This document shows, piece after piece, positions 3,242 through 62,865 of a stretch of DNA of 64,000 nucleotides (position 1 is its first letter; every line of letters begins with the position of its first letter). A program made the position numbers and the translations under genes. The notes beneath the pieces were generated by a model. It was not told where the DNA came from and did not search any database. It saw nothing but the letters and a program-made list of their open reading frames with translations. This DNA comes from Patescibacteria group bacterium (GTDB lineage Bacteria; Patescibacteriota; Patescibacteriia; 2-02-FULL-49-11). The stretch lies in the NCBI GenBank assembly GCA_041645165.1, contig JBAZQN010000004.1, positions 18,789-82,788 of the forward strand, written 5' to 3'.

Positions 3242-4321
3242 TTAGCATGGGCATTCCAGAATACCCGCACTTATTTTCGGGAAGCATCTCCCCACCCACC
3301 TTTCTTTCCCGTACTTTCTATCCTTTATCTTACTGCACCGTTGCCACAACTCCGCGAGCGAAGAGTCGCGTATATTCCCAACAGTATCATCAGCCTCACA
3401 GAGTTTAATGTTCCCGATATCGTCCATATACATCCCGGCGCGAGCAATATCGCATGGTAAACCACCTGGGAATGCAACGGGGTCGGGGAAATAAATTCCT
3501 TCATGTTCTCTCAAAGTAACAAGTCTTTGTATGAGGTTTGTAATCTCACGAGGGCATGGAGAGTACTTTACTCTGATTTCAGGATCAGCCACCTTTCCAA
3601 TTGGCATTAATGGACAGACGAGCGGATAGATATTATTATGCAGTGCAAAATTAAAGATATATGCTATCTTGCCGTAGTTCTGTTTCAGGAGGACAATTCC
3701 GAAACCCAGCCTCGTAGGATGATATCTATTGAAGCCAGCAGACAGTAGGCGTGTGAGAGCTTTATTTCTCAAGGTAGAATATCCTTTCCGTTGGACGATG
3801 CTATCCTGCTGTTGTCTCTCGTACTTGAGCATTACCGTAGCTCCTATATCATGAAGTTTCCGCACGATTCCATCACACGAAAGGTGGTGAATTTTTTGTG
3901 CGAGTTCATCCGATCCCAGCACATCTCCACAGGTGAATAAAACAGGAATCACGCCAAGATTTCTGATCTTAGCGAGCAGAGGGAGTATATCTTTCCGTAG
4001 TAATGGTTCTCCTTCACCGAGAATTTTGATACTTTTCCCTCCTAGTGCTGCAAACTCTTCAAACACCCGTACAATCTCATCTTGTGTTAATTTAGGTCCA
4101 TGATTTACGCCGAAATACCCGCAATAGAAGCACTTGTTCAAACATCCACCTGGTAATGCACAGTCCATCGTGAGAGGGATGTTGTTTTTTCTTGCCTGCA
4201 CAATATCTTTATCAGAGAATGTGCCTCCCTCATATCCAAAAATTTTTGTTGTGTTTTTCATTTTTTGTCTCCTTATTTTTTTCATGTTAAAGAACATGCT
4301 TTTTATTTTTGTTATTTCCAT
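3242..4321 (-). CDS. radical SAM protein with Cys-rich C-terminal (SPASM/twitch-like) domain. Start may be an internal Met (e.g. 4285)
   Basis: CxxxCxxC motif CLNKCFYC preceded by GGC. At least seven additional Cys in the last ~120 aa (SPCP, LPCD, KLCE, QRCS, GRCF, LECPC). Confidence 0.75.
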   Translation of the reverse strand: MEITKIKSMFFNMKKIRRQKMKNTTKIFGYEGGTFSDKDIVQARKNNIPLTMDCALPGGCLNKCFYCGYFGVNHGPKLTQDEIVRVFEEFAALGGKSIKILGEGEPLLRKDILPLLAKIRNLGVIPVLFTCGDVLGSDELAQKIHHLSCDGIVRKLHDIGATVMLKYERQQQDSIVQRKGYSTLRNKALTRLLSAGFNRYHPTRLGFGIVLLKQNYGKIAYIFNFALHNNIYPLVCPLMPIGKVADPEIRVKYSPCPREITNLIQRLVTLREHEGIYFPDPVAFPGGLPCDIARAGMYMDDIGNIKLCEADDTVGNIRDSSLAELWQRCSKIKDRKYGKERWVGRCFPKISAGILECPC

Positions 4322-6508: not shown

Positions 6509-9500
6509 TTAGCCTTTCCACCACCTCTCTGCGGTGGTGTATTCGTCCCAGGCTTTCGCGGAGAGATCGTCTTCTTTTGTGGTGCTGAGTGAACGCAAAT
6601 ACATTTTCGCGATTTTGAGGTCAGTATGGAGAGGGATATGGCTGTCCACCGCCAATCTTCTGATAAAAAAGCCGTCAGTCCGCGAAGACGAGGTCTGACG
6701 GCGTTCAGGGATATTAATAACACAATCAACTTTCCTCCCCCTTATCCATTCGCTGACATTGGGGCTCCCCCCTTCGCTCACCTTGCGCAAGCACAACGTT
6801 TCGATGCCGTTATCCTCCAAAAAATTCGCGGTATGCTCCGTGGCGGCGAAAACGAATCCCTGACGGGAAAGTGCCTGGATATCAAAAAGAAGAATACCTT
6901 TGGCGGTATCTGGGCCGATCGAAAGGAGTATTGTTTTTTTAGGATAATAATTGCCTGCCGCCGCAATCGCCTTCAAAAAAGCCTCCTCATAAGAATCGCC
7001 GAAACAGGCCACCTCGCCGGTGGACGCCATTTCCACCGTAGGCTTCGGGTCCGCGCCTTTAATGCGGCTAAAGGAATACTTAGGCGCTTTCACGGCCACA
7101 TAATCAAGGTCAAGGGTACGGTAATCTCCGCGGATATCCTCACCGAGCATGGCGCGGGTGGCGAAATCAATAAAATTATAACGAGACACCTTTGACACGA
7201 AAGGAAATGACCGGCTTGCGCGAAGATTGCACTCAATCACCTGGATGCGGTTGTCTTTGACGAGGAATTGGATATTGAAGGGGCCGGTGATATCTAACTC
7301 TTTCACGATATTCCTGCATACGAGCTTCACCCGCCGCGTCGTTTCAAGGAACAGCCGCTGTGGGGGATAGACGACGGTCGCGTCGCCCGAATGGACTCCC
7401 GCGTGCTCCACGTGTTCGGTAACCGCATATAGCACCAGCTCACCCTTTTGCGCGACACCGTCGATCTCCACCTCTTTGGCGCCCTCAATGAATTTCGAGA
7501 CGACCACGGGATGATCCGGCGTCACGGCCGATGCCGCAGTAAGATAGCGGGTAAGCTCTTCCTCATCCTCCGCGACATTCATGGCCGATCCTGAAAGCAC
7601 GTAGGACGGGCGCACGAGTACGGGAAATCCCGCGGCATTGGCAAACGCGCACGCTTCGCGCACGGTAGTGAGCTCTTTCCATGCAGGCTGGTCTATATTG
7701 AGCCGGTCAAGAAGCGCGGAAAACTTGTGCCGATCCTCTGCGCGGTCTATATTCCGGGCTGACGTGCCCCACAGGGGCACTTTGGCGTGCGCAAGAGACA
7801 GCGCAAGGTTATTCGGCACCTGCCCTCCCATAGAGACCACCAATCCCCTCGGACGCTCAAATTCGCAGATATCCAGGATGCGCTCCAAGGTCAATTCCTC
7901 GAAGTAGAGGCGATCAGACATGTCATAGTCAGTGGAGACCGTCTCGGGATTTGAATTGACCACAATCGTGCGAATTTTCTTGTGCCGCAAAGTTTTGGCA
8001 GTATTCACGCAGCACCAGTCAAATTCAACTGAAGAGCCGATGCGATAGGGGCCGGAACCAAGCACGATGGCGGGGCGCCGCTCACGCGTTACATCATGTG
8101 CGCTCCCGTGGTAAGTGCAGTAGAGGTAATTGGTCTTCGCGGGAAATTCTCCCGCGGTCGTATCAATTTGTTTTACCGTAGGCACCACGCCGCATTGTTT
8201 CCTCAACCTGCGGACCGCGTGTTCTGTATGGGCGCACGCCTCAGCGATGCACGCATCTGAAAATCCTAACTGTTTAAGTTTTTTTAATGCAGGTGTGTTG
8301 CGCCTCACTTCGTCCCATCCTTTTGCGCGTAAGGACGCATACGCTCCCGCAAGCGTTTTGAGATGCGAGAGAAACCATGGATCAATGCCGCTCAAGCGCG
8401 CGATGCGGGAGACGTTCACCTTGTGCCCTAGCGCAAAGGTAAAGGCAAAAAGGCGCGACGGCGTAGGAATGCGGATATCGCGGAGCGCTTTCTCAAGGTC
8501 ATGATATCCGTTATTCATAAACAGTTCTTTTCCCAAGCACAACATCCTCACCGCCTTTTGAAGCGCCTCAGGGAAACTGCGCCCCAGCGCCATCACTTCG
8601 CCCACGCTTTTCATCTCTGAACCTATAGTAAGCTCGGCGGCGCGGAATTTCGTAAGGTCCCACCGGGGAATTTTTACTGCGATATAATCAAGAGCCGGTT
8701 CGAAAAAGCTGCCGGTCGCGCGCGTAATCGCATTGGGTATCGCATGGAGCGGAATCCCAAGCGCCGCTTTGGTCGCCACAAATGCCAGAGGATATCCCGT
8801 GGCTTTTGACGCGAGCGCAGACGAGCGGGAAAGGCGCGCATTCACCTCTATCACTCTGATACGAGGCATGACACGGCTTTTCACCCGAGGTTTCGGCTCT
8901 ACTGCAAACTGGATATTGCATTCTCCCACAATATCCAGGTGATGCGCCACCTTGAGCGCCATGGCGCGCAATAAATGGTATTCCTTATTGGAAAGCGTTT
9001 GCGAGGGAGCAACCACGATGCTTTCGCCCGTGTGGATGCCCATGGGATCCATATTTTCCATATTGCACACGGTAACCGCATTGCCAAAAGAATCCCGCAT
9101 GATCTCATATTCAATTTCCTTCCAACCTCCCAAGTACTCTTCCAAAAGGGCCTCTCCCCCCTGCGACAGCGCAGTGTTTAATAACTCCCTTAATTCACGC
9201 GGGTTGCGCGCATAACCAGACCCTAAACCTCCCAGCGAAAAACCAACACGTACCATGACCGGATAGGCAATGCGTTTTGCGAAGAGAAGCCCCTCCTCCA
9301 TATTCTTCACGGTGGTGCCGCGCGGCACCGCGATCCCGATCTTTTGAAGCCGCGCAGAAAAAGCAGCCCTGTCTTCAGTGTCATGAATCGTTTTCAGGGA
9401 AGTGCCTAAAACGCGGACCCGATGCCGCTTCAGAACGCCCTCGCGATCCAACTCAAGTCCGAGGTTCAATGCAGACTGGCCTCCCACATTCAAGAGGATG

Positions 9501-9769
9501 GCATCAGGGTGCTCCCGCGCGATAATGCGCGCAGCAAAATGAAGGGTCAGGGGAAGAAAATATACCCGATCCGCAAAATCCGCGTCAGTCTGCACGGTGG
9601 CGATGTTGGGATTTAAGAGAACAGTTTTGATGCCTTCTTCCTTAAGCGCCTTAATCGCCTGCGAACCGGAATAATCAAACTCTCCGGCTTGGCCGATTTT
9701 CAAACCGCCGGAACCGATGATAAATACTTTCTTCGGAAGGGTCTTTTTTGATAATGTGTTTTGCATCAC
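6509..9769 (-). CDS. carB: carbamoyl-phosphate synthase large subunit
   Basis: 1086 aa with duplicated ATP-grasp halves. N-terminus KKVFIIGSGGLKIGQAGEFDYSGSQA. C-terminal MGS-like domain. The last 15 codons are encoded by a dispersed 47-bp repeat (see findings). Confidence 0.95.
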   Translation of the reverse strand: MMQNTLSKKTLPKKVFIIGSGGLKIGQAGEFDYSGSQAIKALKEEGIKTVLLNPNIATVQTDADFADRVYFLPLTLHFAARIIAREHPDAILLNVGGQSALNLGLELDREGVLKRHRVRVLGTSLKTIHDTEDRAAFSARLQKIGIAVPRGTTVKNMEEGLLFAKRIAYPVMVRVGFSLGGLGSGYARNPRELRELLNTALSQGGEALLEEYLGGWKEIEYEIMRDSFGNAVTVCNMENMDPMGIHTGESIVVAPSQTLSNKEYHLLRAMALKVAHHLDIVGECNIQFAVEPKPRVKSRVMPRIRVIEVNARLSRSSALASKATGYPLAFVATKAALGIPLHAIPNAITRATGSFFEPALDYIAVKIPRWDLTKFRAAELTIGSEMKSVGEVMALGRSFPEALQKAVRMLCLGKELFMNNGYHDLEKALRDIRIPTPSRLFAFTFALGHKVNVSRIARLSGIDPWFLSHLKTLAGAYASLRAKGWDEVRRNTPALKKLKQLGFSDACIAEACAHTEHAVRRLRKQCGVVPTVKQIDTTAGEFPAKTNYLYCTYHGSAHDVTRERRPAIVLGSGPYRIGSSVEFDWCCVNTAKTLRHKKIRTIVVNSNPETVSTDYDMSDRLYFEELTLERILDICEFERPRGLVVSMGGQVPNNLALSLAHAKVPLWGTSARNIDRAEDRHKFSALLDRLNIDQPAWKELTTVREACAFANAAGFPVLVRPSYVLSGSAMNVAEDEEELTRYLTAASAVTPDHPVVVSKFIEGAKEVEIDGVAQKGELVLYAVTEHVEHAGVHSGDATVVYPPQRLFLETTRRVKLVCRNIVKELDITGPFNIQFLVKDNRIQVIECNLRASRSFPFVSKVSRYNFIDFATRAMLGEDIRGDYRTLDLDYVAVKAPKYSFSRIKGADPKPTVEMASTGEVACFGDSYEEAFLKAIAAAGNYYPKKTILLSIGPDTAKGILLFDIQALSRQGFVFAATEHTANFLEDNGIETLCLRKVSEGGSPNVSEWIRGRKVDCVINIPERRQTSSSRTDGFFIRRLAVDSHIPLHTDLKIAKMYLRSLSTTKEDDLSAKAWDEYTTAERWWKG

Positions 9770-9777
9770 AAAGGATA

Positions 9778-9886
9778 TAAATCAAAATGCAAATCTCAAA
9801 ATCCAAAATGAAAGTGTAAAATTTATAAATTTTGATTTATCATTTTGATTTTTGATTTTTGGATTTTACATTTATACGGTAAGGTG
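9778..9886. repeat. AT-rich inverted-repeat element (family caaaatgcaaa...cattttgatttttgatttttggattttacatt) between carA and carB
   Basis: Imperfect ~40-bp palindrome. The right arm 9841-9872 is identical to 62931-62962, and the left arm matches 62868-62895 with 2 mismatches. Confidence 0.7.
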
Positions 9887-9895
9887 CAGTATCCT

Positions 9896-11032
9896 TCATA
9901 GTAATTTTACAAACTCATCAAACAGATAATTCGTATCATTCGGTCCTGGATGCGCTTCGGGATGAAATTGCACCGAGATAAACGGCAGCCTCCGGTGTGC
10001 GATACCTTCAACGGTCTTGTCGTTGGCATTGCGGAACGATACGCGCCACTGCTTCGGCAGAGAAGATTCGCGCACCGCATATCCATGGTTCTGCGAGGTG
10101 AGCACGCAACGATGGGTGCCTTCAATGCGGCACGGCTGATTCTGCCCTCGATGGCCATAGGGCAACTTATATGTGTGAGCTCCCGCGGCAAGCCCCATCA
10201 ATTGGCTCCCAAGACAGATGCCAAAGAGGGGACGCTTTTGCCGAAACGCTTTTTGCAGAAGAGCGATAGTAGCGCGGCACTGCATGGGATCTCCCGGCCC
10301 ATTTGAAACCACAATGCCGTGAGCGCGAAGCCGGGTAAAATCATAGTCATAGGGCACGCGGGTGACCCGCACTCCGCGCGCTACAAGCGAACGCACGATA
10401 CTTTCTTTCGCGCCGCAATCAACTAAAATGACGTGCTTTGCGCCTCGCCCGACATGCGATACGCGCGGTACCGTGACCTGTGCCACAAGATTTTCTTCGT
10501 TGGGATCTTTGTTTTCCACATACGCATGACTGTGCACAATCGTCCCGCGCATCACCCCGTGCGCTCTGATCTTTTTAGTAAGCGCGCGGGTATCTACGCC
10601 CGCAAGGCAGGGCACTCCTTCCCTTATCAGCCACCGCGAAAAAGAATGCACGCCCTCCCAATGGCTCCAATGCTCAACGCACTCGCTTACAATCACCCCA
10701 CGGACCTGCATCTTTTTTGACTCCCAGCTCTTAGCGGATGGGACGCCGTAATTGCCAATAAGCGGATACGTAAACACGAGTATCTGCCCCCTAAATGAGG
10801 GGTCAGTGAGCGACTCGACATAGCCGACCATGCCGGTGGTAAATACTACCTCCCCCCCCGCAGATACAGGCGCCCCGCAGGACACCCCAGACCATCGTGT
10901 GCCGTCCACAAGGGCAAGTTCGCCCGCTAAAGGTGCCTTCCTAAAAGGCCAAAAAAATCCCCCTTGTGGGGGAATGGGAAAAACGGCAGTAGTTTGGGTG
11001 TTGGGCGCACGTCTGGTAGAGCGAAGAGGCAT
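9896..11032 (-). CDS. carA: carbamoyl-phosphate synthase small subunit (glutamine amidotransferase)
   Basis: GEVVFTTGMVGYVESLTDPSFRGQILVFTYPLIGNYG. GATase triad region GICLGSQLMGLAAG...HGYAV...FHPEA. The N-terminal ~40 aa are atypical and contain a GC palindrome. Confidence 0.9.
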   Translation of the reverse strand: MPLRSTRRAPNTQTTAVFPIPPQGGFFWPFRKAPLAGELALVDGTRWSGVSCGAPVSAGGEVVFTTGMVGYVESLTDPSFRGQILVFTYPLIGNYGVPSAKSWESKKMQVRGVIVSECVEHWSHWEGVHSFSRWLIREGVPCLAGVDTRALTKKIRAHGVMRGTIVHSHAYVENKDPNEENLVAQVTVPRVSHVGRGAKHVILVDCGAKESIVRSLVARGVRVTRVPYDYDFTRLRAHGIVVSNGPGDPMQCRATIALLQKAFRQKRPLFGICLGSQLMGLAAGAHTYKLPYGHRGQNQPCRIEGTHRCVLTSQNHGYAVRESSLPKQWRVSFRNANDKTVEGIAHRRLPFISVQFHPEAHPGPNDTNYLFDEFVKLL

Positions 11033-11336
11033 GGATGGAAAGGTTGAATTAAACCTTTATCTAAGACGCCCTGTAAAAATAACTTCACGCTTTGATTAAC
11101 TGCCTTGCCTGAAATAATAGCATTATATACAAGAACGACCCTATAAGTTATTTTTTCTGGCACCCTAAAAGACAGTATAACGGCAAAAAGGCTATCAAAC
11201 AAGTGGTTTAAGTCGAGTGTGCCCCCCCTGCCATCTTTAGGGGGCTCTAAGGCAAGATATTTTTCCACAGGCAGATGAATCCAAAGTGTTCATTTTTTCG
11301 CTTAAGTACGAATAAATTCAGCATTTTCCTCCCTTC

Positions 11337-11365
11337 TTGACTTTAGCTCTTTTCTCTGCTATACT
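11337..11365 (+). promoter_or_regulatory. near-consensus sigma70-type promoter TTGACT-N17-TATACT
   Basis: ttgact at 11337-11342, a 17-nt spacer, and tatact at 11360-11365. It lies ~550 nt upstream of the next + strand CDS. Confidence 0.45.
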
Positions 11366-11731
11366 GCTGATGTAAAAATAAAGTCACCCAAGTTAAGAAG
11401 CGGAGAGCGGAGGTCTCATCTTAGCTTTAAAAACCAAACTTAAGGTATTACCTCCGTTTTCTACTTCTCGAGGATAATATTCGCCGATATTATCCGCAGT
11501 TATAAAAATAACTGAAAAAATAAAAATAAAAAGTTTTATTTCGTACGCAATTACCCTTAAAAAAGGTATTGAATGTACGAGGAGGGAGGTAGAGAATATA
11601 GGGCTATTTAAAAATTCGGCAATAGCCTAAAGGGGCTTACATCATCATCTCCGCTTTTACCCACCAGGGTGAGAACGGGGTGGGTATTAGTCCCTTGAGG
11701 CCCACGCTGGACCCTATATTCTTTTTTATTC

Positions 11732-11758
11732 GGCCCCTAGCGGGGCCTCATTTTTTTT
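11732..11758 (+). terminator. Rho-independent terminator (ggcccc-tagc-ggggcc followed by T9)
   Basis: GC hairpin immediately followed by tcatttttttttat. It closes a ~370-nt non-coding transcript from the promoter at 11337. Confidence 0.45.
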
Positions 11759-11913
11759 ATTGCGCACTTATCCTATACATGGTAGTATCAATACACCTTA
11801 GGCGCCATAAAAAAAATAACAAATCCAGCCATTGGCATGATAGTTCTGGAAAACAAGGCTAAACCTTATGCTTAAGTGAAATGTTATTTTTTTAAGCGCC
11901 CTTACCTCATGAT

Positions 11914-12794: not shown

Positions 12795-12925
12795 AAATCA
12801 GGTCATGAATTTTCAATTCTCAATTTACAATTTTCAATCAATGACCTCATGTCTCTATTCTCATACATTGAACCATTGATTCATTGAAAATTATTTGAAA
12901 ATTGATACCTGAAAATTTAGGTACT
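12795..12925. repeat. AT-rich hairpin-rich intergenic element (aattttcaa / ttgaaaatt word family)
   Basis: ggtcatgaattttcaattctcaatttacaattttcaatcaatgacc hairpin plus cattgaa...ttgaaaatt repeats. The same words recur at 29190-29369. Confidence 0.5.
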
Positions 12926-14579: not shown

Positions 14580-15950
14580 TTAACGATCGAATGGCATCTT
14601 GCGATTAATCCATTCGATCAATTTCTGTCGCCACCGAGGTCGTTTCCCGCCTTGAGGAAGGAGAGGGAAGGTGGTGTTTTTCCCAAATGGCGTGAGAAGG
14701 ATGATGATGGTAAGGTAGGCAAGGTTGCTTGCCCACCTATGCCATCTGCGTGGGTGGGTGAGGGGAGAGCCCAGCGCGGCGAAGTCGAGGTTATAGAAGA
14801 AACTTGGATGACGAACTGTCTTCTCTACTGGCGCGGCGAAATTTACACTCATCCAGTTGTCGTTCTTCGGGATGAACATCTTCGCTAGATATGGTCTTGC
14901 CACTGCTCCGCAGAAGAAACTTTTACGAACACTGTACCAAACAGTCTTCGCAAGCGTTCGTAAGTTATCTTCAGGAAAGCCAAACACCATCAACAGCTCC
15001 GCCGTAATCCCGACTTCACGGCAAATTTCCAGAACACGGTCACCGAGGGATAACCGGTTGTGGGTTTTATTCTCATCACGCCAGACTTTCTCATCCGTAC
15101 CGTCGAAACCGAACCCAACCGCAAAGAGGTTGGCTTTCATTACCAATTCGTGAAAGTTCGGCAAGGTTTTATAGGCAGTGATAAATGAGGAAATGCAGGA
15201 GAGTCCACGGATGCGAATCTGCACCCCGGTCTTCTCACTCACATCTCCCACAATGGTGAGAAAGTCAGCGAACAACCGCGGGCTTTGAAACAAGTCCAAA
15301 CTGGAGATATAGAATTGTAATTTGGACAGTCCAAATTCTCTTGCCTTACCTGCGAGGTATTGCAGGTCGGTCCGAATCTTCTCGAGAGAACGGAACCGTT
15401 CCTGTCGTGATTTTGCCGCACCGCAGAATCGGCACGCAAAACGGCAGCCCTGCGCTACAAAGAGACCTGCTTCTTGCTCGAGATAAAGTTTCAACGCCTC
15501 GTCCGAGATAGTTTTGTACATCTTAACGCAGTCGATCTCAAACACATCTGGAAGTTGGTTAACGCCGAGTGCTTTTTTCAAGGTGCTATCATTGTTAATT
15601 TGGATAGGTTTATCGCCGAAGAGCGTTTTGAACTGATTAGGAAGCAATCCTTCAGTCACTTGTCCGCCAATAAGAATCGTGGCGCGAGGATTAACTTGAT
15701 ACACTTGGTTCGAGAACTGAATAGCGTCCGGCATATTAGAACTACCAACAAGAGAGGTACCAATAAAATCAGCTGCACGGACTTTATCTTGTACCCATTG
15801 CTCGTCAAGGGAGTTAAGATTGAGATCAATCAACTCGACCTCAAAGCCTGCCTCAATAAGTTGTGCACCCACAACGATCAGGGTGCTGGGCAGGTATATT
15901 TGCCGTTTCCCAAACGGGTACGGCAGATTAAACAGTGATATCTTTTTCAT
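14580..15950 (-). CDS. radical SAM protein with N-terminal B12-binding-like domain (second rSAM locus). The C-terminal ~50 aa are low-complexity and may be over-extended
   Basis: CxxxCxxC motif AQGCRFACRFCGA. N-terminal Rossmann-like domain. A glycine-rich GFGFDG region. Confidence 0.7.
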   Translation of the reverse strand: MKKISLFNLPYPFGKRQIYLPSTLIVVGAQLIEAGFEVELIDLNLNSLDEQWVQDKVRAADFIGTSLVGSSNMPDAIQFSNQVYQVNPRATILIGGQVTEGLLPNQFKTLFGDKPIQINNDSTLKKALGVNQLPDVFEIDCVKMYKTISDEALKLYLEQEAGLFVAQGCRFACRFCGAAKSRQERFRSLEKIRTDLQYLAGKAREFGLSKLQFYISSLDLFQSPRLFADFLTIVGDVSEKTGVQIRIRGLSCISSFITAYKTLPNFHELVMKANLFAVGFGFDGTDEKVWRDENKTHNRLSLGDRVLEICREVGITAELLMVFGFPEDNLRTLAKTVWYSVRKSFFCGAVARPYLAKMFIPKNDNWMSVNFAAPVEKTVRHPSFFYNLDFAALGSPLTHPRRWHRWASNLAYLTIIILLTPFGKNTTFPLLPQGGKRPRWRQKLIEWINRKMPFDR

Positions 15951-15985
15951 GATTTAGCTCCTTTTTAAATTGTCAAAGAATTTTC
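15951..15985 (-). promoter_or_regulatory. conserved leader motif TTGACAATTTAAA(AA)GGAG immediately upstream of the start codon (copy 1)
   Basis: Minus-strand reading: ttctttgacaatttaaaaaggagctaaatcATG. It is almost identical to the leader of the adjacent gene (16560-16595). Confidence 0.4.
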
Positions 15986-16004
15986 GATTTTAGTTTTAGG
16001 ACTC

Positions 16005-16559
16005 TTACCAAGAGAATTCGAGCCCCAGCAGGTTTCCTGCCCACTGGGTTGGTTTCCAAAGCCTCACTTTACAGCAGAAGCGCCCCCATCTGGCTTTGAC
16101 AAAGGGTCCAACTTTAAGCTGACGGCTCTCATTGAAGATCCAAATAAACTGTTCCCCAATTCCAATATCGAGTGATTTCTTTTTAAGAAGATGGAGGTCT
16201 GTGAGGTGGTAAAGCCATCTCCCCTTCCTAGTCACTGAAACTTGATTAAGGCCAGTGACATATTTGTTATCGACATAGCACTCAAAAGAAAATCCTGCAT
16301 AATGGCCAAACAGTATCCCAATGGCTGGGATAATCTTGAGTGGAGTGATTTGGAATGGTGTCGATTTGCCGATGAATGTTTCTAAGGTTTTTTCAAAGTG
16401 GTTATATCTTGCATCTATCCAAATTCCGCCCACTTTGATACTCCCCCATAGAAATGGCTCTATCCCTTTTTCGGTAGAAGCCATGAACAGCGTAAAATCT
16501 TGCGCGGACGCGGTGTCCACGCATGCGAGGGCTAAAAGCACAAATAATATCTTTTTCAT
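16005..16559 (-). CDS. hypothetical secreted protein (signal peptide MKKILFVLLALACVDTASA)
   Basis: Classic Sec signal peptide. 184 aa. Aromatic-rich with a C-terminal EFSW. It is paired with the rSAM gene and shares its leader motif. Confidence 0.5.
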   Translation of the reverse strand: MKKILFVLLALACVDTASAQDFTLFMASTEKGIEPFLWGSIKVGGIWIDARYNHFEKTLETFIGKSTPFQITPLKIIPAIGILFGHYAGFSFECYVDNKYVTGLNQVSVTRKGRWLYHLTDLHLLKKKSLDIGIGEQFIWIFNESRQLKVGPFVKARWGRFCCKVRLWKPTQWAGNLLGLEFSW

Positions 16560-16595
16560 TGTATTTCTCCTTTAAATTGTCAATGATTCTATATT
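16560..16595 (-). promoter_or_regulatory. conserved leader motif TTGACAATTTAAAGGAG (copy 2)
   Basis: Minus-strand reading: tcattgacaatttaaaggagaaatacaATG. Confidence 0.4.
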
Positions 16596-16799
16596 TCTAT
16601 ATTTCGGATTTTAACGAGGTAGTATATGCCTGTGATAGCAAATGTATAGGCTATCTAAGACACTTACATTAGATATTGCAATTTTTTGGCTAATATAATA
16701 TAATAAAAGTGTCGGGGAAGTTTCCACAACATTGTCATGTAGAAGCCACTTTACGCCTTGAATAACGCAAGTTCACGCCATTGGTCATAACTCCCCTAG

Positions 16800-16875
16800 C
16801 CCCTCTTATCCTAAAGAGGGGGGAAATTGTGCGACACCCTCACCTTAATCCTCTCCCTTTCTAGGAAGAGGGGGT
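16800..16875. repeat. two GC-rich palindromes (cccctcttatcctaaagagggg; ctctccctttctaggaagaggg) upstream of TrmB paralog B
   Basis: Members of the CCCCTC..TTA..TAA..GAGGGG hairpin family seen throughout the window. Confidence 0.7.
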
Positions 16876-17786: not shown

Positions 17787-17792
17787 ATACCT

Positions 17793-19058
17793 ATGTCCCA
17801 ACTCATTCGTTTCCCCGGCATGGTGGATATGCATGTGCATATGCGCGAGCCAGGGATGGCTCAAAAAGAAGACTGGCTCACGGGAACTTCTGCGGCAGTC
17901 GCAGGCGGAGTGGTTGCGGTCGTTGATATGCCGAATACCATTCCGCCCACGTTCACGAGTGAGGCATTAGATGAAAAGGAAAAAATCGCGCGCGAGAAAG
18001 CCCTTTGTGATTACGGATTCTATTTCGGTTCTGACGGCAGCAACCTTGGTGAATTTGAAAAAGTATATGACCGCGTATTAGGGTTAAAACTTTATTTGGA
18101 TGAAACCACAGGTGCGCCACCTCGTCATTCCCATGGAAATGGGAATCCAGATAGTAAAAATAAATCGATTCCTGTTTTTTCTGGATCCCCGATCAAGGCC
18201 TGCCCCGCACTTGATGCGGGGTCGGTGATGACATTGAAGCAGGGGGCGAACACGTTATTACTTGAGGATGAAAAAATAATTAAAAGCATATTTCGCGCCT
18301 GGCCGCGCGGCAAGCCGATTCTTGTGCACGCGGAAGGCGAGAAGCTTGCACGCGCGATTATCCTAGCTCAAAAGAATTACCAAAAACTCCACTGCTGCCA
18401 TATTGCCACGAAAAAGGATATAGAAGTAATCGCAAAGGCCAAGATGAAGGGAATATCACTCACCTGCGAAGTCTCACCGCATCATTTATTCCTCACCAAT
18501 AAGGACAGAACGCGGCTAGGATCACTCGCAATGATGAAACCGGAGCTGGGTACGGAGGCGGATCAACAAGCATTGTGGAATCATATTCAAAAAGGCACTG
18601 TTGATTGCATTGCTACGGACCATGCACCGCATACACTTGAGGAAAAATTGACCTCAGATCAACACAGTGACCCCTCCTCTGTCCCCCCCTTACTAAGGGG
18701 GGGATGGGGGGGTCCTTGGGGCGTGCCCGGGTTAGAGACTGCAATGCCTCTGCTTTTAACTGCGGTTGAAGACGGAAAATTAACCCATGAAGAACTCACG
18801 CGACTTACCAATATAAATCCGTGCCGTATATTGGGAATACGTCCTGCAGGACAGACGTATGTGGAAGTAGAAACCGGCATACAATACCAACTGGATGAAA
18901 GAACGCTAAAAACCAAATGCGGCTGGTCGCCGTTTGCTGACATGACGTTGAAAGCGCGCGTGGCGCGTACGATCATTCGTGGCGTTGAGGTATATAAAGA
19001 TGGTAAGATAGTGGCAGCGAAAGGCGTGGGAAGGCCGATCTTGTCATCTCCGACTTGA
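17793..19058 (+). CDS. pyrC: dihydroorotase
   Basis: Metal-binding DMHVHMREPG, DHAPH and amidohydrolase fold. It contains two in-frame palindrome-encoded insertions (HSHGNGNPDS at 18127-18146; DPSSVPPLLRGGWGGPWG around 18682-18702). Confidence 0.85.
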   Translation: MSQLIRFPGMVDMHVHMREPGMAQKEDWLTGTSAAVAGGVVAVVDMPNTIPPTFTSEALDEKEKIAREKALCDYGFYFGSDGSNLGEFEKVYDRVLGLKLYLDETTGAPPRHSHGNGNPDSKNKSIPVFSGSPIKACPALDAGSVMTLKQGANTLLLEDEKIIKSIFRAWPRGKPILVHAEGEKLARAIILAQKNYQKLHCCHIATKKDIEVIAKAKMKGISLTCEVSPHHLFLTNKDRTRLGSLAMMKPELGTEADQQALWNHIQKGTVDCIATDHAPHTLEEKLTSDQHSDPSSVPPLLRGGWGGPWGVPGLETAMPLLLTAVEDGKLTHEELTRLTNINPCRILGIRPAGQTYVEVETGIQYQLDERTLKTKCGWSPFADMTLKARVARTIIRGVEVYKDGKIVAAKGVGRPILSSPT

Positions 19059-20090: not shown

Positions 20091-20199
20091 ATCCCAATGA
20101 CCATCCTTCGACAAGCTCAGGATGACAAGAAGTCATTGTCATGGTGAGCCGAGTCGAACCATGGAATTTAGTGCTTGGAGCTTAGAATTTTATTGAGAT

Positions 20200-21195
20200 A
20201 TGACTTTTTTTGAAAAACTCACCGCGGCCATGCAGCAAAATAACAGCCTCCTCTGTATAGGCCTTGATAGCGATTTCGAAAAAATCCCTGAATGTTTAAA
20301 GAAAAAGACGAGAGGGGATAACACACCCCCGCCCGATGGGCGACCCCTCTCAAGAGGGGATTACTCAAGCCGGCAGCGGGCGGAAATAATTCTGGCATTT
20401 AACCGCGCGATCATTGATGCGACGAAAGACGCAGTGTGCGCATACAAACCGAACAGCGCATTTTATGAAGCGCTAGGCGGGCGGGGTCTTGAAATTCTCA
20501 AACAGACAATCCAGTATATCCGCGAACGCGCGCCTGCTATTCCTGTCATTCTCGACGCAAAACGCGGGGACATTGGCTCCACCAATGCCTCGTATGTCCA
20601 ATTCGCCTTTTCGTATCTGAAAGCTGACGCAATTACCCTCCATCCCTACCTTGGGAGAGAAGCGCTCCAGCCGTTCCTTGATCAAAAAGAGAAAGGAATA
20701 TTCGTATTGTGCCGTACCTCGAATCCGGGAGCGGGTGAATTTCAAGACTTGAAGGTGTTTCGTTTTCAGGGTCATTCTGACCCCGCAAATGCGGGGGAAG
20801 AATCCCCCACGAATGTGGACCGGCATGCGCCGGAGACCCTTCGACACACTCAGGGTGACACTAATGGCGAAGAATTGTATAAGGTGGTGTCGCGCCAAGT
20901 AGCGGAAGAATGGAATGCAAATGGCAATTGCGGGCTGGTCGTTGGCGCGACCTATCCTGAAGAGCTAAGAGAAGTCCGCACCATCGTCGGTAATATGCCA
21001 ATTCTCGTACCCGGCATCGGCACGCAAGGCGGCGACGTGGAAAAGACGGTACGGGCTGGCATCACGGCTCAAGGAAACAGCATAATCGTCAACTCCTCAC
21101 GCGGGATTATCTTTGCTTCGTCAGACGAAGATTTTGCCGAGGCGGCAAAAATAGAAGTATTGAAGTTAAGAGATCAGATTAATCAATATAGATAA
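20200..21195 (+). CDS. pyrF: orotidine 5'-phosphate decarboxylase (long type 2 form)
   Basis: LCIGLDSD, DAKRGDIGST and VPGIGTQGG motifs. Two in-frame palindromic insertions at 20329-20357 and 20781-20796. Confidence 0.85.
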   Translation: MTFFEKLTAAMQQNNSLLCIGLDSDFEKIPECLKKKTRGDNTPPPDGRPLSRGDYSSRQRAEIILAFNRAIIDATKDAVCAYKPNSAFYEALGGRGLEILKQTIQYIRERAPAIPVILDAKRGDIGSTNASYVQFAFSYLKADAITLHPYLGREALQPFLDQKEKGIFVLCRTSNPGAGEFQDLKVFRFQGHSDPANAGEESPTNVDRHAPETLRHTQGDTNGEELYKVVSRQVAEEWNANGNCGLVVGATYPEELREVRTIVGNMPILVPGIGTQGGDVEKTVRAGITAQGNSIIVNSSRGIIFASSDEDFAEAAKIEVLKLRDQINQYR

Positions 21196-27963: not shown

Positions 27964-29229
27964 TTATCTGCGATCTAAAATGGTGAGCAAATGCCCCAGC
28001 CGGTCGCGTTTGGTTTTAAGATATTTTTTGTTATATCTCCCGGGTTTCACTTCCAGCGGCACGCGCTCTACAATCTTCAATCCGTACCGGGCTATGCCGG
28101 TAATTTTCTCGGGATTATTAGTAAGCAAACGAATTTTTTTTATACCCAGATCGGCAATAATCTGTGCGCCGACATGATAATCCCGCATATCAACGGGCAG
28201 CCTTAATTTGGTATGCGCCGAAACAGTATCTTCTCCCTGATCTTGCAGCGCATACGCGCGAATCTTGTTGGTAAGCCCGATGCCGCGCCCTTCCTGATTC
28301 AGATAAATGATCGCGCCCTCACCCGCATCATTTATTTTTTGCATCGCACGCGTTAACTGCGGGCGGCAGTCGCACCGCAGGGAATGGAACGTATCGCCGG
28401 TCAGGCATTGGGAATGAACGCGCAGGAGCGTCGGTTTTCCCGCTACAGGCTTTCCCTTCACCAGCGCGACATGTTCAATACCGCTGATGAGCGAACGATA
28501 CACATACATCTTGAACGTGCCGAGCTCTGTGGGGAGCGAAGCGCTCGCAACCCGGCGCACCAATGGTTCGCGTGCGCGACGATACGCAATTAATTCAGCG
28601 ATGGTAAGATAAGGCAAATGATGATGGCGTGCAATATGTTTCAACTGCGCGCGCCGCGCTGATCTTCCACTTTTCTCTAAAATCTCACAGACCACTGCGA
28701 CGGGTTTCAATCCCGCAAGCTGCATCAGGTCAACGGCCGCTTCCGTGTGCCCTGCCCGATAGAGCGTGCCGCCGGGATAACTTCTTAATGGGAAAACATG
28801 CCCGGGACGGGCAAGGTCATAGGGGCGCGTGCGAGGATTTGCCAACGCCCGTATCGTCGTCGCGCGATCATAAGCAGATATGCCTGTGGTGATTCCTCGC
28901 TTTGCGTCCACTGATACGGTAAATTCGCAATGCGTCACCTCATTATTCTCTTCCTCAGGCACCATCGGAGGCAAGTGCAGCTCTTCCGCGCGTTCCCGTG
29001 TCATAGGTACGCACACAATTCCTCGGCCTACTTTAAGAAAAAAATTGATCGTTTTGGGTGTCGCAAATTCTGCAGCCATGACGAAATCACCCTCATTCTC
29101 CCGCTTCTCATCATCAGCCACAATAATTATTTTTTCACGCTTCAGCGCGTGCAATGCTGATTCAATTTTCTTATAGTTTTCCATAGATCGTGTACGAAAT
29201 CCAAAAACTCTAGAATTTTCAACACTCAA
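27964..29229 (-). CDS. ribBA: bifunctional 3,4-dihydroxy-2-butanone-4-phosphate synthase / GTP cyclohydrolase II
   Basis: RibB ENEGDFV plus the RibA zinc site CLTGDTFHSLRCDC. 421 aa. Confidence 0.9.
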   Translation of the reverse strand: MSVENSRVFGFRTRSMENYKKIESALHALKREKIIIVADDEKRENEGDFVMAAEFATPKTINFFLKVGRGIVCVPMTRERAEELHLPPMVPEEENNEVTHCEFTVSVDAKRGITTGISAYDRATTIRALANPRTRPYDLARPGHVFPLRSYPGGTLYRAGHTEAAVDLMQLAGLKPVAVVCEILEKSGRSARRAQLKHIARHHHLPYLTIAELIAYRRAREPLVRRVASASLPTELGTFKMYVYRSLISGIEHVALVKGKPVAGKPTLLRVHSQCLTGDTFHSLRCDCRPQLTRAMQKINDAGEGAIIYLNQEGRGIGLTNKIRAYALQDQGEDTVSAHTKLRLPVDMRDYHVGAQIIADLGIKKIRLLTNNPEKITGIARYGLKIVERVPLEVKPGRYNKKYLKTKRDRLGHLLTILDRR

Positions 29230-29369
29230 TTTTCAATTTTTCCCCCGACTTGTCGGGGGATCCCGTTGCGGCGGGACAATCAATATCTCAATGTCACAAT
29301 TTTCAAACGTTTGATAATTGTTTCATTGAAATTAAATGAAAATTGAAGCTTGAAAATTATCAAAACAGT
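29190..29369. repeat. AT-rich hairpin-rich intergenic element between ribBA and ribH (contains cccccgacttgtcggggg and cccgttgcggcgggacaa hairpins)
   Basis: It shares words with the 9778, 12795, 37141 and 62866 elements (cgaaatccaaaaactc; aattttcaa; gcgggacaa). Confidence 0.55.
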
Positions 29370-37136: not shown

Positions 37137-37140
37137 AAAT

Positions 37141-37262
37141 TCGAAATACGAAACTCTAAATCCTAAACAAATTCGAAACTCAAATATACAAAATCCAAAA
37201 CAATTTTGAACATTCGAATTTTGGATTTGGTGCTTGTTTAAAAATTAGGATTTCTGATTTAG
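37141..37262. repeat. AT-rich inverted/direct repeat element (aaaatccaaaa...ttttggattt; taggattt x2)
   Basis: Related by shared words to the elements at 9778 and 62866. Confidence 0.5.
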
Positions 37263-38156
37263 GATTTTCACGCTGTGTCCTCCAAACTCCTGCCGCAGCG
37301 CCGCGACCACTTTGTGCGCGAAACCGTCCTTGCACTGCCGCGAGCGCGCGCGCTCCTGAAGCGCAGCCTTAATGGCCGGCACACGCACGCCACGTCGCTT
37401 TGCTTCTTCAACCGTCCAATTCCCCGTCGTCCCTCCCTCAACATACGGCGCAATGCGTCTGAATCCTGGATTTTTGAGCGCATCTCTCGCCCATGCGATT
37501 AACCGCGAATCAATAATGCTCTTCTTCGTCCACACGTCAGCGACCTCGGCAAGTTTTAATTTAAAAAGTGATCCGTGCAATACCGCCAAGCCTTCACCAA
37601 TCGCTTCCATCATCCCCACCTCAATGCCATTGTGCACGGTCTTTACCAAATGTCCGGCGCCTGAGGCTCCGCAATAAAGATAGCCCCCTCGAGGACGGCT
37701 CATAATCTTTAATAAGGGTTCAAGCATCTTGAAAGCTTTTTTCTCTCCTCCCGCCATAAAACACCATCCGTTGCGCGCGCCGCTTGTACCCCCGCTCGTG
37801 CCAATGTCCAGAAAATATATCCCTTTGCGCTTTAATGCCTTTGCCCGCCGCTGAGAATCAAGATAATTAGAATTCCCCCCGTCAATCACAATATCACCCT
37901 TTCGTAACTGACCAACTAATAAACTGATTAACTGAGTAACTGGCCTACCCTGCGGCACCATGAGCCAAATGATCTTCCTCCCTTTAAGCCGTGAGGCTGC
38001 ATCCCGCGCTGACGACGCAATCACCGCACCTGCCCGCTTCAGGGCAGGATAGGCTTGAGAAGAGCGGTTATACGCCACCACGCTCACTCCATTCTTCAGG
38101 AGACGGAGCGCCATCGCCCCGCCCATTTTTCCAAGTCCTATAAATCCAATGGTCAT
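37245..38156 (-). CDS. 6-phosphogluconate dehydrogenase (decarboxylating)-like, short NAD(P)-binding form
   Basis: MTIGFIGLGKMGGAMALRL Rossmann N-terminus. 6PGDH C-domain-like GTSGGTSGARNGW...HNGIE. 303 aa. Confidence 0.7.
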   Translation of the reverse strand: MTIGFIGLGKMGGAMALRLLKNGVSVVAYNRSSQAYPALKRAGAVIASSARDAASRLKGRKIIWLMVPQGRPVTQLISLLVGQLRKGDIVIDGGNSNYLDSQRRAKALKRKGIYFLDIGTSGGTSGARNGWCFMAGGEKKAFKMLEPLLKIMSRPRGGYLYCGASGAGHLVKTVHNGIEVGMMEAIGEGLAVLHGSLFKLKLAEVADVWTKKSIIDSRLIAWARDALKNPGFRRIAPYVEGGTTGNWTVEEAKRRGVRVPAIKAALQERARSRQCKDGFAHKVVAALRQEFGGHSVKILNQKS

Positions 38157-39301: not shown

Positions 39302-39445
39302 AGGAATAAGAATTTATTATATGCGGTGCGAAGGTTTCAATAGATATACGCAGATATTCTTCAACTGTTTCAGTATATCCTTGTGTTTCCTATTGTACTA
39401 TACTATCATCAATTTACACCAATCACACCCTCTAACCCATTAATT

Positions 39446-40174
39446 ATGAAACTTTTCATTGATTCAGCCAATCTCGAAGAAATCAAAACCGCGCTATCAT
39501 GGGGCATGGTGGACGGCTGTACCACCAACCCTACGCTTGCCGCCAAGAACGGCGCTAGCCCCGTTAGAAGTAATCCCGCTCAGCGGGATGCAGTTCCGAC
39601 GCTGGAACGGACTTCTAACGGGGTAAACGATTTCCTCCCCATCGCGAAGCAAATCCTCTCGCTCGTCCCCGGACCTGTCAGCCTTGAAGTGCTCTCCCAA
39701 GACTATGCAGGCATGACGCGGGAAGGAGTGGCGCTCGCAAAACTTGGGAAAAATGTAGTCGTGAAGCTCCCCACCACTATTGAAGGCTTGAAAGCATGCC
39801 GTGCGCTCGTCAATAAAAAAATACGCGTCAATATGACGCTGGTATTCTCAGCTCTGCAAGCCTTGCTCGTCGCCAAATCCGGCGCGACCTATGTTTCTCC
39901 ATTTGTCGGACGGCTGGATGACGCGGGGCACGACGGCAACGAGGTGGTGCAAGAAATTATTGAAATCTACGATAATTATGGATTTAAGACCCAGGTCCTG
40001 TATGCCAGCGTCCGCTCACCCTTGCACGTGAAACAAGCGGCGCTCATGGGATGCGACATTGCCACGTGTCCCTTCTCCGTTTTGGAAAAACTGGTCCAGC
40101 ACCCCTTAACCGACACCGGGCTTAGCAAATTCCTCTCGGACTGGAAAAAGTCAGGGTTGAAACCTCTTGTCTAA
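39446..40174 (+). CDS. transaldolase / fructose-6-phosphate aldolase family protein (Fsa/TalC type). Start trimmed to the Met matching family N-termini
   Basis: MKLFIDSANLEEIK...GCTTNP...KLPTT...SPFVGR motifs. It contains a 65-nt in-frame nested-palindrome insertion at 39559-39623. Confidence 0.85.
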   Translation: MKLFIDSANLEEIKTALSWGMVDGCTTNPTLAAKNGASPVRSNPAQRDAVPTLERTSNGVNDFLPIAKQILSLVPGPVSLEVLSQDYAGMTREGVALAKLGKNVVVKLPTTIEGLKACRALVNKKIRVNMTLVFSALQALLVAKSGATYVSPFVGRLDDAGHDGNEVVQEIIEIYDNYGFKTQVLYASVRSPLHVKQAALMGCDIATCPFSVLEKLVQHPLTDTGLSKFLSDWKKSGLKPLV

Positions 40175-40184
40175 CTCCCCTAAC

Positions 40185-40241
40185 CCCTCTTACTCTAAGA
40201 GGGGTACTCGTTTCTACTCCTCCTCTTGAGATAAGAGGAGG
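40185..40241. repeat. two GC-rich palindromes (cccctcttactctaagagggg; cctcctcttgagataagaggagg) downstream of the transaldolase gene
   Basis: Same hairpin family as 16800, 54038 and 54137. Confidence 0.7.
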
Positions 40242-40916: not shown

Positions 40917-41003
40917 ATTCCAGACTTGATCTGGAATCCAGAAAAATATACAAAATCGACGTTTCTTTTGGCTTTCTGGATTCCCGCCTTCGCGGGAATG
41001 ACA
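40917..41003. repeat. two ATTCC/GGAAT-family hairpin elements (attccagacttgatctggaat; tttctggattcccgc-cttc-gcgggaatgaca)
   Basis: The second copy has the same terminal sequences as the element upstream of pyrD (19106-19160). Confidence 0.7.
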
Positions 41004-41782: not shown

Positions 41783-41916
41783 AAAGAGAAGGTACACGAA
41801 TTGTACCATTTCGCGGATAAGGAATCAAAGTTAAACATGTGATTTATTACCATAATTTCCCTCTTTTTGGTTGATTTTTTTGTCATTTTAAGGTAGGCTG
41901 GTGGCGAGGCTGTCCT

Positions 41917-43491: not shown

Positions 43492-43654
43492 TGAGAAACT
43501 CTAAGTGCTAAGTTCTAAATTCTAAACATGATTCGACAAGCGTTCGACTGAGCTCACGCCGAAGGCTCACCATGACAACCGTCTTTGTCACCCTGAGCCA
43601 GACGAAGGGTGTTTGAATTTGAAGCTTGGAACTTTGATTTTTTGCACTCAAACC

Positions 43655-53873: not shown

Positions 53874-54037
53874 TACGGAGGGTTCTCGCCGCCGCAGGCG
53901 GTGAAAGCGGTTCGCACTAATCCAAAAATAGAGCAAATGAAACATATGGAATGGCTGAATGTTATTTTTCTCATTGGCTCTACAGACATTTATGGGAGTA
54001 ATCCACGGTACCTCGAAGCGCGGCATTAGTACTTTAT

Positions 54038-56086: not shown

Positions 56087-56169
56087 GTCACGCCACAAAT
56101 CATGATACTATGCATAAGTCAATTCAGTTTCGCATGAATCCAATTTTTTAATCCGCGCCTCTCTATCCT

Positions 56170-57900: not shown

Positions 57901-57946
57901 ATTTAGAAACGTCCCGCAGGGACACTATAATTTTGACTTTTGATTT

Positions 57947-62857: not shown

Positions 62858-62865
62858 AGGATATT

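Follow-up and report, generated by a model that had tools for sequence, protein, structure and literature searches.

The 64,000-nt stretch of Patescibacteria DNA analysed here (contig JBAZQN010000004.1, positions 18,789 to 82,788; hereafter the window) carries two copies of a palindromic element of ~100 nt, copy 1 at 9778-9873 and copy 2 at 62865-62962, whose closest known relatives are the intervening sequences (IVSs) of 23S rRNA genes. The contig is 101 kb long (ENA ERZ27249422) and Uhrbacteria-like, with one protein that falls into a 90%-identity cluster with a Candidatus Uhrbacteria protein. The element is discrete, occurs in multiple copies, is insertional, interrupting rRNA, and has both of its ends in common with a cassette that encodes a four-helix-bundle protein. 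We read the window copies as miniature derivatives of this IVS-type cassette that lack its open reading frame (ORF), resembling in this respect miniature inverted-repeat transposable elements (MITEs). We assign the overall reading, two ORF-less copies of a ~100-nt palindromic insertion element, a probability of about 0.6; that the family itself is of IVS type and related to the cassette is very probable. The kinship with IVSs was absent from the original prediction, which was made from the letters of the window alone and described an AT-rich inverted-repeat family at intergenic sites. To our knowledge, a dispersed intercistronic miniature IVS-like element with an ORF-bearing parent is undescribed, and neither the sequence strings of the family nor a description of these elements was found in the searchable literature.

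Two palindromic copies in intercistronic spacers

Each copy fills the entire interval between the stop codon and the start codon of two neighbouring genes on the minus strand. Copy 1 lies in the spacer 9770-9895 between carA (9896-11032) and carB (6509-9769), and copy 2 in the spacer 62858-62969 between ftsH (from 62970) and an ORF of 331 aa, orf331 (61862-62857). A direct-repeat search of the window identified a 33-nt arm, TCATTTTGATTTTTGATTTTTGGATTTTACATT, that is identical at 9840-9872 and 62930-62962, as well as opposite arms at 9778-9809 and 62865-62896 with 91% identity. The original prediction had noticed the shared right arm and the near-identical left arm and had pointed out that the cores differ, and it was correct in all of this: the core of copy 1 is AT-only, and the core of copy 2 (62900-62928) is a G+C-rich hairpin, GGAGTCCCGCTTAAGCGGGAC..ACTCC. 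Its placement of the elements mostly at the 3′ ends of genes does not fit elements that take up the spacer as far as the next start codon. A distance of 53 kb separates the two copies, which lie in unrelated contexts, and their arms recur in at least 120 stretches of other genomes and in 7 contigs of the Joint Genome Institute (JGI). The pair is therefore not a local duplication limited to two loci, which was the alternative that the original prediction had named.

The A-rich arm of copy 1 on the plus strand (9778-9827) is an array of ~7-nt units (CAAAATG CAAATCT CAAAATC CAAAATG) and is followed by a T-rich arm (9825-9873) that includes the 33-mer. On the transcribed minus strand, 9778-9827 becomes the U-rich 3′ arm, which ends 14-17 nt upstream of the carB start. 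The corresponding arms of copy 2 on the plus strand are at 62865-62910 (A-rich, 91% identical to copy 1) and 62924-62962 (T-rich, with the identical 33-mer). A hidden Markov model (HMM) built from 131 arms of other genomes and searched against the window with nhmmer matched only these four arms, with E=1.2e-10 and E=5.7e-8 for the A-rich and T-rich arms of copy 1 and E=1.1e-10 and E=5.9e-8 for those of copy 2, plus a weak partial arm at 57921-57946. A degenerate arm pattern, AAAATSCAAAWMTCAAAAWNCAAAAT, matched exactly the same four arms in the window and gave 0 matches in 100 dinucleotide-preserving shuffles.

The termini of both copies are complementary and are predicted to form a long stem, as is characteristic of IVSs. 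Fold prediction, a check proposed with the original prediction, gave long imperfect hairpins for both copies on both strands, with z-scores of the minimum free energy (MFE) from -3.5 to -7.3. The whole carA-carB spacer with copy 1 (9770-9895, minus strand) is predicted to form one long imperfect A:U-rich hairpin, with an MFE of -25.2 kcal/mol on the minus strand and -28.6 kcal/mol on the plus strand (z -3.9 and -3.5). No Rfam family reached its gathering score anywhere in the window; matches at E<=1 were sub-threshold, mostly to plant microRNA precursor hairpins, and were dismissed as generic AU hairpins. Because the elements lie within operon-like gene runs they are very probably transcribed, as had been suggested from their location.

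The family in other genomes

The degenerate arm pattern, scanned against one genome per species, matched at least 120 stretches, and the family counts below come from the matches listed. Simple coding or tandem repeats account for a few of these matches (for example L093 and L017). Bacteria of the candidate phyla radiation (CPR) predominate among the stretches, including Saccharibacteria, many Parcubacteria lineages, Microgenomates, and Berkelbacteria. An exact 27-mer of the window arm is present in the 7 JGI contigs in varied contexts, and the exact 33-mer is in none of the loci from the genome scan or the JGI scan, neither of which matched the source genome itself. Neither the arm pattern nor the subfamily of four-helix-bundle proteins described below had a match in IMG/VR viral contigs.

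The element consists of an A-rich arm, a variable core that is AT-only or contains a small G+C hairpin, and a complementary T-rich arm, with a median span of 102 nt. The arm comprises ~5-7 A-rich heptads with the consensus WAATKC AAAATGC AAAAATC AAAATGC AAAATGA CAATTTA, and its inner end is typically ..AAAATGACA. Conservation reaches 6 nt beyond the search pattern (WAATKC) and then collapses, marking a discrete outer terminus. The polarity is pronounced, with a T-rich partner within 260 nt downstream for 81 of 132 arms and upstream for 6. Among the 81 cores, 65 are AT-only and 16 contain a G+C-rich segment. Full elements with genes on both sides (n=61) are found in 55 co-directional, 3 convergent, and 3 divergent spacers, where co-directional gene pairs make up 81% of the background in these loci. 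Single A-rich arms were also observed within long ORFs, where they are read as a Lys/Asn/Gln-rich stretch (L019 ~1259-1284, L039 ~6834-6859, and L093 ~4240-4265). By eye, the ORFs in L019 and L039 are leucyl-tRNA-synthetase-like and PHP/PolX-like, respectively, and recall the in-frame Rickettsia palindromic elements (RPEs).

Both window copies are in protein-gene spacers and neither is inside a 23S rRNA helix, but members of the same family interrupt a 23S rRNA gene at locus L049, from a Saccharibacteria metagenome-assembled genome (MAG). The bacterial large-subunit rRNA gene at this locus has ~840 nt of surplus sequence, and two insertions in it, at ~1105-1000 and ~705-585 on the rRNA strand, belong to the family. 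The second insertion aligns with window copy 2 including the core, and this core type (AAAATTATGGAGTCC..) recurs in L092 (Uhrbacteria) and L038. The same 23S gene, which is on the minus strand, also carries a group I intron at 236-466 and three AT-rich heptad palindromes with TTAAC/AACAGTT words at 1701-1790, 2421-2510, and 2901-2970. The TTAAC words recall the TAACTGA heptamers of Beggiatoaceae, Cyanobacteria, and Bacteroidetes (PMC4679880).

The ORF-bearing form is found at locus L082, from a Terrybacteria MAG, where six copies of the element lie within 8 kb, in nearly every spacer of a co-directional gene run. Five of these copies are ORF-less and have 85-98% pairwise identity, and the sixth encodes an ORF of 123 aa (3949-4317). 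The ORF-bearing copy aligns with the ORF-less copies over the 5′ arm and the first ~12 codons (ATGCAAAATGACAGTGCAAAATTTAAAAATGAGTTTAA versus ATGCAAAATTACAATGTAAAATCAAAAAATAATTTTAA), and the alignment resumes at the stop codon (TGATTTTAA/CATTTTAATTTGTCATTTT) and continues through the 3′ arm. The ORF encodes a four-helix-bundle protein, scoring 80 bits with TIGR02436 (cut-off 24) and 66 bits with PF05635 ('23S rRNA-intervening sequence protein', cut-off 33.8), families that represent the protein encoded in 23S rRNA IVSs. The junction core of window copy 1, ..ATAAATTTTACACTTTCATTTTG, is similar to the post-stop junction TTTTAACAYTTT of the L082 cassette and of its ORF-less copies, and the type of motif common to them is ..TTTTA(A)CACTTT... 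The same cassette order, an arm with the ATG followed by the ORF and the second arm, occurs in L025 (Saccharibacteria MAG), L022 (Nealsonbacteria MAG), and L128 (JGI contig), with the start codon located within the A-rich arm. An S23p/PF05635 ORF in the loop, which is optional in IVSs, is accordingly a feature of these four relatives, and the window copies are of the ORF-less kind. In L022 the four-helix-bundle ORF (1267-1640) has an in-frame stop (..VVEAKS*SSKKDY..) and represents a decaying copy, which parallels the reductive evolution reported for the S23p ORF of Coxiella (PMC4990558). The L022 cassette lies directly 3′ of a tRNA-like sequence. A search for transposases between arms 0.3-3.5 kb apart in the ~120 loci found none, only four-helix-bundle ORFs or ordinary genes.

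Orthologous spacers in relatives of the window are always occupied by a heptad palindrome, often one of another word family. In L123 and L124, which carry relatives of carA with at least 90% identity, the carA-carB spacer contains a heptad palindrome of other words, the lspA-yifB spacer contains an A-then-T element where the window has a T-then-A family, and the pyrF-pyrD spacer contains a full palindrome, in contrast to the one-armed copy and G+C-rich repeats of the window. The ftsH-orf331 spacer of L133 (88% protein identity) contains the same element as the window, in which a double change from G:C to A:T preserves the core stem, and in L132 (81%) and L135/L138 (56%) this spacer contains a CTAAA-family element instead. 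A neighbouring non-coding stretch of ~385 nt has ~95% identity between the window and L123 (9380-9760, reverse complement) over the aligned ~380 nt, and the spacers are therefore not simply saturated.

Spread, RNA processing, and alternative explanations

The data show an insertion with discrete ends that multiplies within genomes and that survives in the loops of rRNA helices and exactly between a stop codon and the next co-directional start codon. In the mechanism that we propose, its arms would, once transcribed, pair to form a long A:U-rich stem. RNase III could then cut the stem as it does in classical IVSs, neutralising the insertion at the RNA level and leaving the flanking cistrons functional. 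Pairing and cutting of the stem would explain why the insertion does no harm either between cistrons or in the loops of rRNA. That the element fits so tightly between a stop codon and a start codon would be due to insertion into minimal spacers, with purifying selection elsewhere. The four-helix-bundle protein may be involved in the spread of the DNA copies, and a secondary host use of an originally selfish element, through effects on processing, stabilisation, or translation, is possible.

Several observations weigh against this account. No empty site was found at the orthologous carA-carB, lspA-yifB, pyrF-pyrD, and ftsH-orf331 spacers of relatives with 56-90% protein identity, and the mobility of the two window copies is for this reason inferred from paralogy and from the rRNA insertions. 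Target-site duplications were not visible at the six L082 copies, the two window copies, or the rRNA insertions, where AT-rich flanks could hide a 2-nt duplication, and no enzyme for DNA mobility was identified with these elements. No four-helix-bundle gene was detected in the 64-kb window with tblastn. We also infer, rather than observe, that an internal deletion of the cassette gave rise to the ORF-less form; capture of an ORF by a hairpin is the less likely direction, given that the start codon has the same placement within the arm in four distant lineages. For cutting of the stem by RNase III the odds seem to us roughly even, and the sequences examined contain no rnc gene. The variable heptad positions of the two arms do not covary (2.09 matches, compared with 2.35 in shuffles), and consensus folding of the subfamily with G+C cores gave 1 compensatory pair in 29. 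Statistically, these covariation data speak neither for nor against an RNA structure that goes beyond the conserved pairing, which, because the variable positions do not covary, is carried by the conserved six of the seven heptad positions only. Some of the matching MAGs carry the labels Chlamydiae, Nitrospirae, Planctomycetota, Bacteroidetes, and others, as deposited, and full elements are present on the contigs L006, L009, L047, L063, L072, and L108 with such non-CPR labels. The end of the T-rich arm also shows a sharp preference for a position 11-13 nt before the next ATG (24 of 53 cases, one-armed copies included), with looser spacing on the stop-codon side, and this preference could be a sign of host function. 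Within the gap of 11-13 nt lies one more degenerate heptad, in which the TT at -9 and -8 is invariant as read from the listed matches, so that the element runs almost from stop codon to start codon.

The location of the elements raises the question of whether they serve host gene expression. As punctuation of transcription, each would be a bidirectional intrinsic terminator composed of an A-tract, hairpin, and U-tract, and a promoter that serves the following gene might be coupled to it. The polarity of A-rich arm, core, and T-rich arm is that of bidirectional terminators, a G+C-rich core segment leads directly into a U-rich arm in copy 2 and in 16 of the 81 elements, and the near-exclusive location between tandem genes is that of promoter-coupled terminators (bioRxiv 10.64898/2026.08.19.745784); a sigma-70-like sequence, TTGAGA-16-TATCCT (9/12), is directed at carB. 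We nevertheless consider this role unlikely, as a consensus scan for a G+C-rich stem of at least 5 pairs with a T-run within 0-2 nt called no site in either element, the nearest approach being the bulged G+C hairpin of copy 2 followed by UUCAUUUUGAUUUUU, and the cores of 65 of the 81 elements are AT-only. Only 3 of the 61 elements are in convergent spacers, the expected place of terminators, and another 3 are in divergent spacers, the expected place of promoters; L082 has one element per gene. Members also occur within a 23S rRNA gene and between ribosomal-protein genes (at the L16, L14, and L6 starts), locations at which efficient termination would do harm. The role of terminator or mRNA stabiliser given in the original prediction is thus unsupported by the scan and is difficult to reconcile with these locations. 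For the promoter, inspection revealed no -35/-10 pair at a fixed position in the family and copy 2 has no promoter match, while the tRNA genes of the window show, by eye, seemingly ordinary TTGNNN-N15-17-TANNNN sequences just upstream. A promoter for leaderless mRNA, with TTGNNN-N17-TANNNT positioned for a transcription start at the ATG, was rejected as the primary role, as the degenerate last heptad (GAATTW, GATTTW) accounts for the hexamer at -12..-7, and A-11 and T-7 are unconserved. Quite unlikely, in our view, is a translation element that works independently of a Shine-Dalgarno (SD) sequence, with U-rich heptads that load ribosomes, for example via S1, and an A-rich arm that masks them until the upstream gene is translated, thereby coupling the two. 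The preferred distance to the ATG, which one-armed copies share, the looser stop-codon side, and the lack of GGAG by eye are consistent with such an element, as is the S1-domain gene that adjoins ftsH in relatives, and TAACTGA heptamers that lie a few nucleotides before start codons without a canonical ribosome-binding site (RBS) provide an analogue (PMC4679880). However, the 11-13 nt include the terminal heptad, which brings the element nearly to the ATG, and an insertion into a minimal spacer would be expected to reach that far. The same family occurs in rRNA, where translation is irrelevant, a second family in the window with TTTTCAA words (see below) has the opposite polarity, and word families are swapped at orthologous spacers. 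SD-like words are at chance level generally, at 135 of 691 genes without an arm and 4 of 42 with one, and lack of an SD sequence was rejected as a specific signal for these loci.

Two further explanations concern how the palindromes arise. Classical mobilisation in trans, by a transposase of an insertion sequence or by a transposase associated with repetitive extragenic palindromic (REP) sequences (RAYT), would make them MITE, REP, or Correia elements with an incidental effect on RNA. Terminal inverted repeats, small size, and several dispersed near-identical copies all agree with this origin, some cores contain nested G+C-rich REP-like repeats, and some arms lie within ORFs (L019 and L039) in the manner of RPEs. 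It is very unlikely given that the six L082 copies and the rRNA insertions have no target-site duplication and that all of the ORF-bearing copies found with the same ends encode the four-helix-bundle protein instead of a transposase. The G+C content of the spacers (23-35%) and the ~40-nt heptad arms are also unlike REPs, and a search of IMG/VR viral contigs found none of these elements. The kinship with MITE, REP, and Correia elements drawn in the original prediction is therefore valid in the broad sense of small dispersed palindromes, but it does not extend to visible target-site duplication or to a transposase in ORF-bearing copies. Palindromes could alternatively arise independently at each site, with no element at all, by replication slippage or template switching in AT-rich spacers. 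The 7-nt periodicity of the arms and the different word families at orthologous spacers would suit such a process, and the number of heptamers in the Coxiella IVS varies between strains (PMC4990558). Slippage is highly improbable in the face of sharp outer termini in a fixed register, a polarity of 81 versus 6, an identical 33-mer in unrelated contexts, and the presence of the element at two sites of one 23S rRNA gene, and the non-repetitive core and junction common to different genomes already contradict it.

An insertion family of IVS type accordingly remains our preferred explanation of the window copies. A bolder extension of it, to which we give a low probability, is that heptad palindromes and four-helix-bundle cassettes together form an unrecognised class of mobile elements. 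The Avd/S23p-like protein would be its mobility or maintenance factor, perhaps binding the 7-nt repeats and acting with a reverse transcriptase of the host or of a diversity-generating retroelement (DGR), or through hairpin targeting. Such elements would invade rRNA helices and intercistronic spacers and may have become the standard spacer of CPR genomes, at which RNase III would cut polycistronic mRNAs. If true, this would account for where rRNA IVSs come from and would assign a function to S23p proteins. How IVSs arose, how they move, and what the S23p ORF does have been unresolved since about 1990 (PMC4990558). Here, one kind of element is present in three forms, as many near-identical copies at different loci of one genome, with and without the ORF, and in both rRNA and intergenic sequence. 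A mobile family that is active, or was so recently, is expected to show this pattern, and the IVS question becomes testable by genome census, population polymorphism, and biochemistry. For CPR bacteria, the consequences would be that much of the intergenic sequence in their tiny genomes is repeat-derived and that the mRNAs of operons may undergo cutting between cistrons. The arms also contain TTG and ATG triplets that can mislead gene callers; the ORF calls of NCBI and our own disagree at several starts.

Other repeats in the window and known systems

The original prediction assigned a single family to five or more sites. Its five sites are indeed all between genes, in spacers of co-directional pairs (carA>carB, ftsH>orf331, gnd>ROK-kinase, ribH>ribBA, and lspA>yifB), but they represent three word families, with the first two sites sharing one. 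The other three sites have the same architecture, with inverted repeats and A/T-rich arms of ~7-nt periodicity, and belong to two other word families. A full palindrome with CTAAA/CGAAA heptads occupies 37137-37270 in the gnd-ROK kinase spacer, where its end overlaps the last gnd codons, and it aligns with the ftsH-spacer elements of L132 and L135. One-armed CTAAA copies are at 43493-43528 (plus strand), followed by G+C-rich REP-like repeats, and at 20163-20191 in reverse orientation (minus strand), adjoining such repeats. The TTTTCAA family begins with the T-rich arm and has copies at 12807-12917 in the lspA-yifB spacer and at 29213-29358 in the ribH-ribBA spacer, the latter with two G+C-rich hairpins in its core. 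The arms of this pair have identities of 89% and 83%, their polarity is opposite to that of copies 1 and 2, and similar arms occur in L008, L040, L046, and L118. The weak partial T-rich arm at 57921-57946 (plus strand), AATTTTGACTTTTGATTT, lies directly 5′ of the ATG at 57947 (nhmmer E=0.22).

Three families of G+C-rich REP-like repeats were also observed, with copies mostly in spacers: TAACTCCCCTARCCCCTCTTA..AAGAGGGG at 16785-16826, 40172-40204, and 54033-54074; GTCATTCCC..GGGAATCCAG at 18124-18164 and 40962-41002; and TGTCACCCTGAGC..GAAGGGT at 20836-20860 and 43586-43610. Similar repeats lie beside or within the cores of AT-rich elements elsewhere, for example in L003, L005, L028, L100, and L127. 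A 49-nt direct repeat, TTAG(T/C)CTTTCCACCACCTCTCTGCGGTGGTGTATTCGTCCCAGGCTTTC, has one copy in a convergent spacer (1659-1707) and another at the 3′ end of carB (6509-6557), with 98% identity, and contains a CCACC..GGTGG hairpin. The stretch of ~385 nt that is conserved in L123, where neighbouring spacers are unalignable, is a candidate structured non-coding RNA at 11372-11757 (plus strand), within the 874-nt spacer upstream of carA (11033-11906). Its promoter-like TTGACT-17-TATACT, with a TG upstream, is at 11337-11365, its terminator, GGCCCCTAGCGGGGCC and then a T-run, is at 11732-11757, and its predicted MFE is -138 kcal/mol (z -8.0); it had no Rfam match and was not called as tmRNA by ARAGORN.

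Most genes in the window have no SD sequence, and a few have a strong AAAGGAG (14580-15950 and 16005-16559). In several genes TATCCT, ATACCT, TGTCCT, or TTCCT is found directly 5′ of the ATG, for example at 9770-9775, 62858-62863, 56164-56169, 17787-17792, 41911-41916, and 39302-39308. In the ~120 other loci, SD-like words precede first ATGs at about chance level. A near-identical block, ..CATTGACAATTTAAA(A)GGAG..ATG, lies upstream of two neighbouring minus-strand genes (15951-16004 and 16560-16600) and may be a shared promoter or operator.

Like promoter-coupled and bidirectional terminators (bioRxiv 10.64898/2026.08.19.745784), the elements combine an A-tract, a stem, and a T-tract, occupy short spacers, and are enriched between tandem genes. 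They differ from these terminators in that most cores have no G+C-rich stem, no -10 sequence follows the T-tract at a fixed position, and members are present in rRNA and in ribosomal-protein gene runs, with conservation across genomes of the sequence and not just of the shape. They share with the TAACTGA repeats a tandem arrangement of intergenic 7-nt units that end a few nucleotides before starts without a canonical RBS, as well as a patchy distribution across phyla with no known transfer mechanism (MacGregor 2015, PMC4679880). Those repeats, in contrast, are direct, have no complementary arm, and have no known ORF-bearing form or rRNA insertions. Their words also differ, yet palindromes of the TTAAC/AACTG type are present in the L049 23S gene. 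The STRR heptamer repeats of cyanobacteria, which are likewise tandem 7-nt intergenic repeats, are grouped with the TAACTGA type.

The likeness to MITE, Correia, RPE, and REP elements lies in short, dispersed, non-coding sequences with inverted-repeat ends that are intergenic within transcription units. As in MITEs, the copies have terminal inverted repeats, are small, non-coding, and multi-copy (two in the window and six in L082), and have ends in common with a longer ORF-bearing element, which suggests derivation from it; as in RPEs, some arms lie within ORFs. Unlike MITEs, they show no visible target-site duplication, and the ORF-bearing copies found encode the four-helix-bundle protein and no transposase. 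In contrast to all four groups, the arms are heptad arrays of low G+C content and are spread over many CPR lineages instead of one genus. REP sequences and REPINs are G+C-rich and 20-40 nt long, whereas the spacers with these elements have 23-35% G+C and the elements are ~100 nt long with heptad arms. Correia elements of Neisseria have 26-bp terminal repeats, a TA duplication, and an IHF site, whereas the termini here are different, no TA duplication is visible, and the host belongs to the Patescibacteria.

The IVS of Coxiella has terminal inverted repeats that form a stem cut by RNase III, an S23p ORF that is optional in the loop of IVSs, and tandem heptameric repeats 5′ of the ORF start whose number varies between strains, and IVSs have been proposed to be transposition remnants or mobile elements in which the ORF aids mobility (PMC4990558). 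Short ORF-less insertions other than introns have been reported in CPR rRNA genes, together with 23S_rRNA_IVP ORFs (PMC11270868). Compared with 23S IVSs, the window copies and most of the other copies seen are in protein-gene spacers, a genome can carry many copies (L082 has six within 8 kb), and the L049 insertion sites do not appear, by eye, to be the classical helices 9, 25, or 45; RNase III cleavage is established for classical IVSs and is proposed for the present family. Like the 23S IVSs of Coxiella and Leptospira, the family has terminal inverted repeats that form a long stem, a loop that in relatives may encode a four-helix-bundle protein of the same family, heptameric repeats that lead to the ORF start, short ORF-less forms, and, in L049, members that interrupt a 23S rRNA gene.

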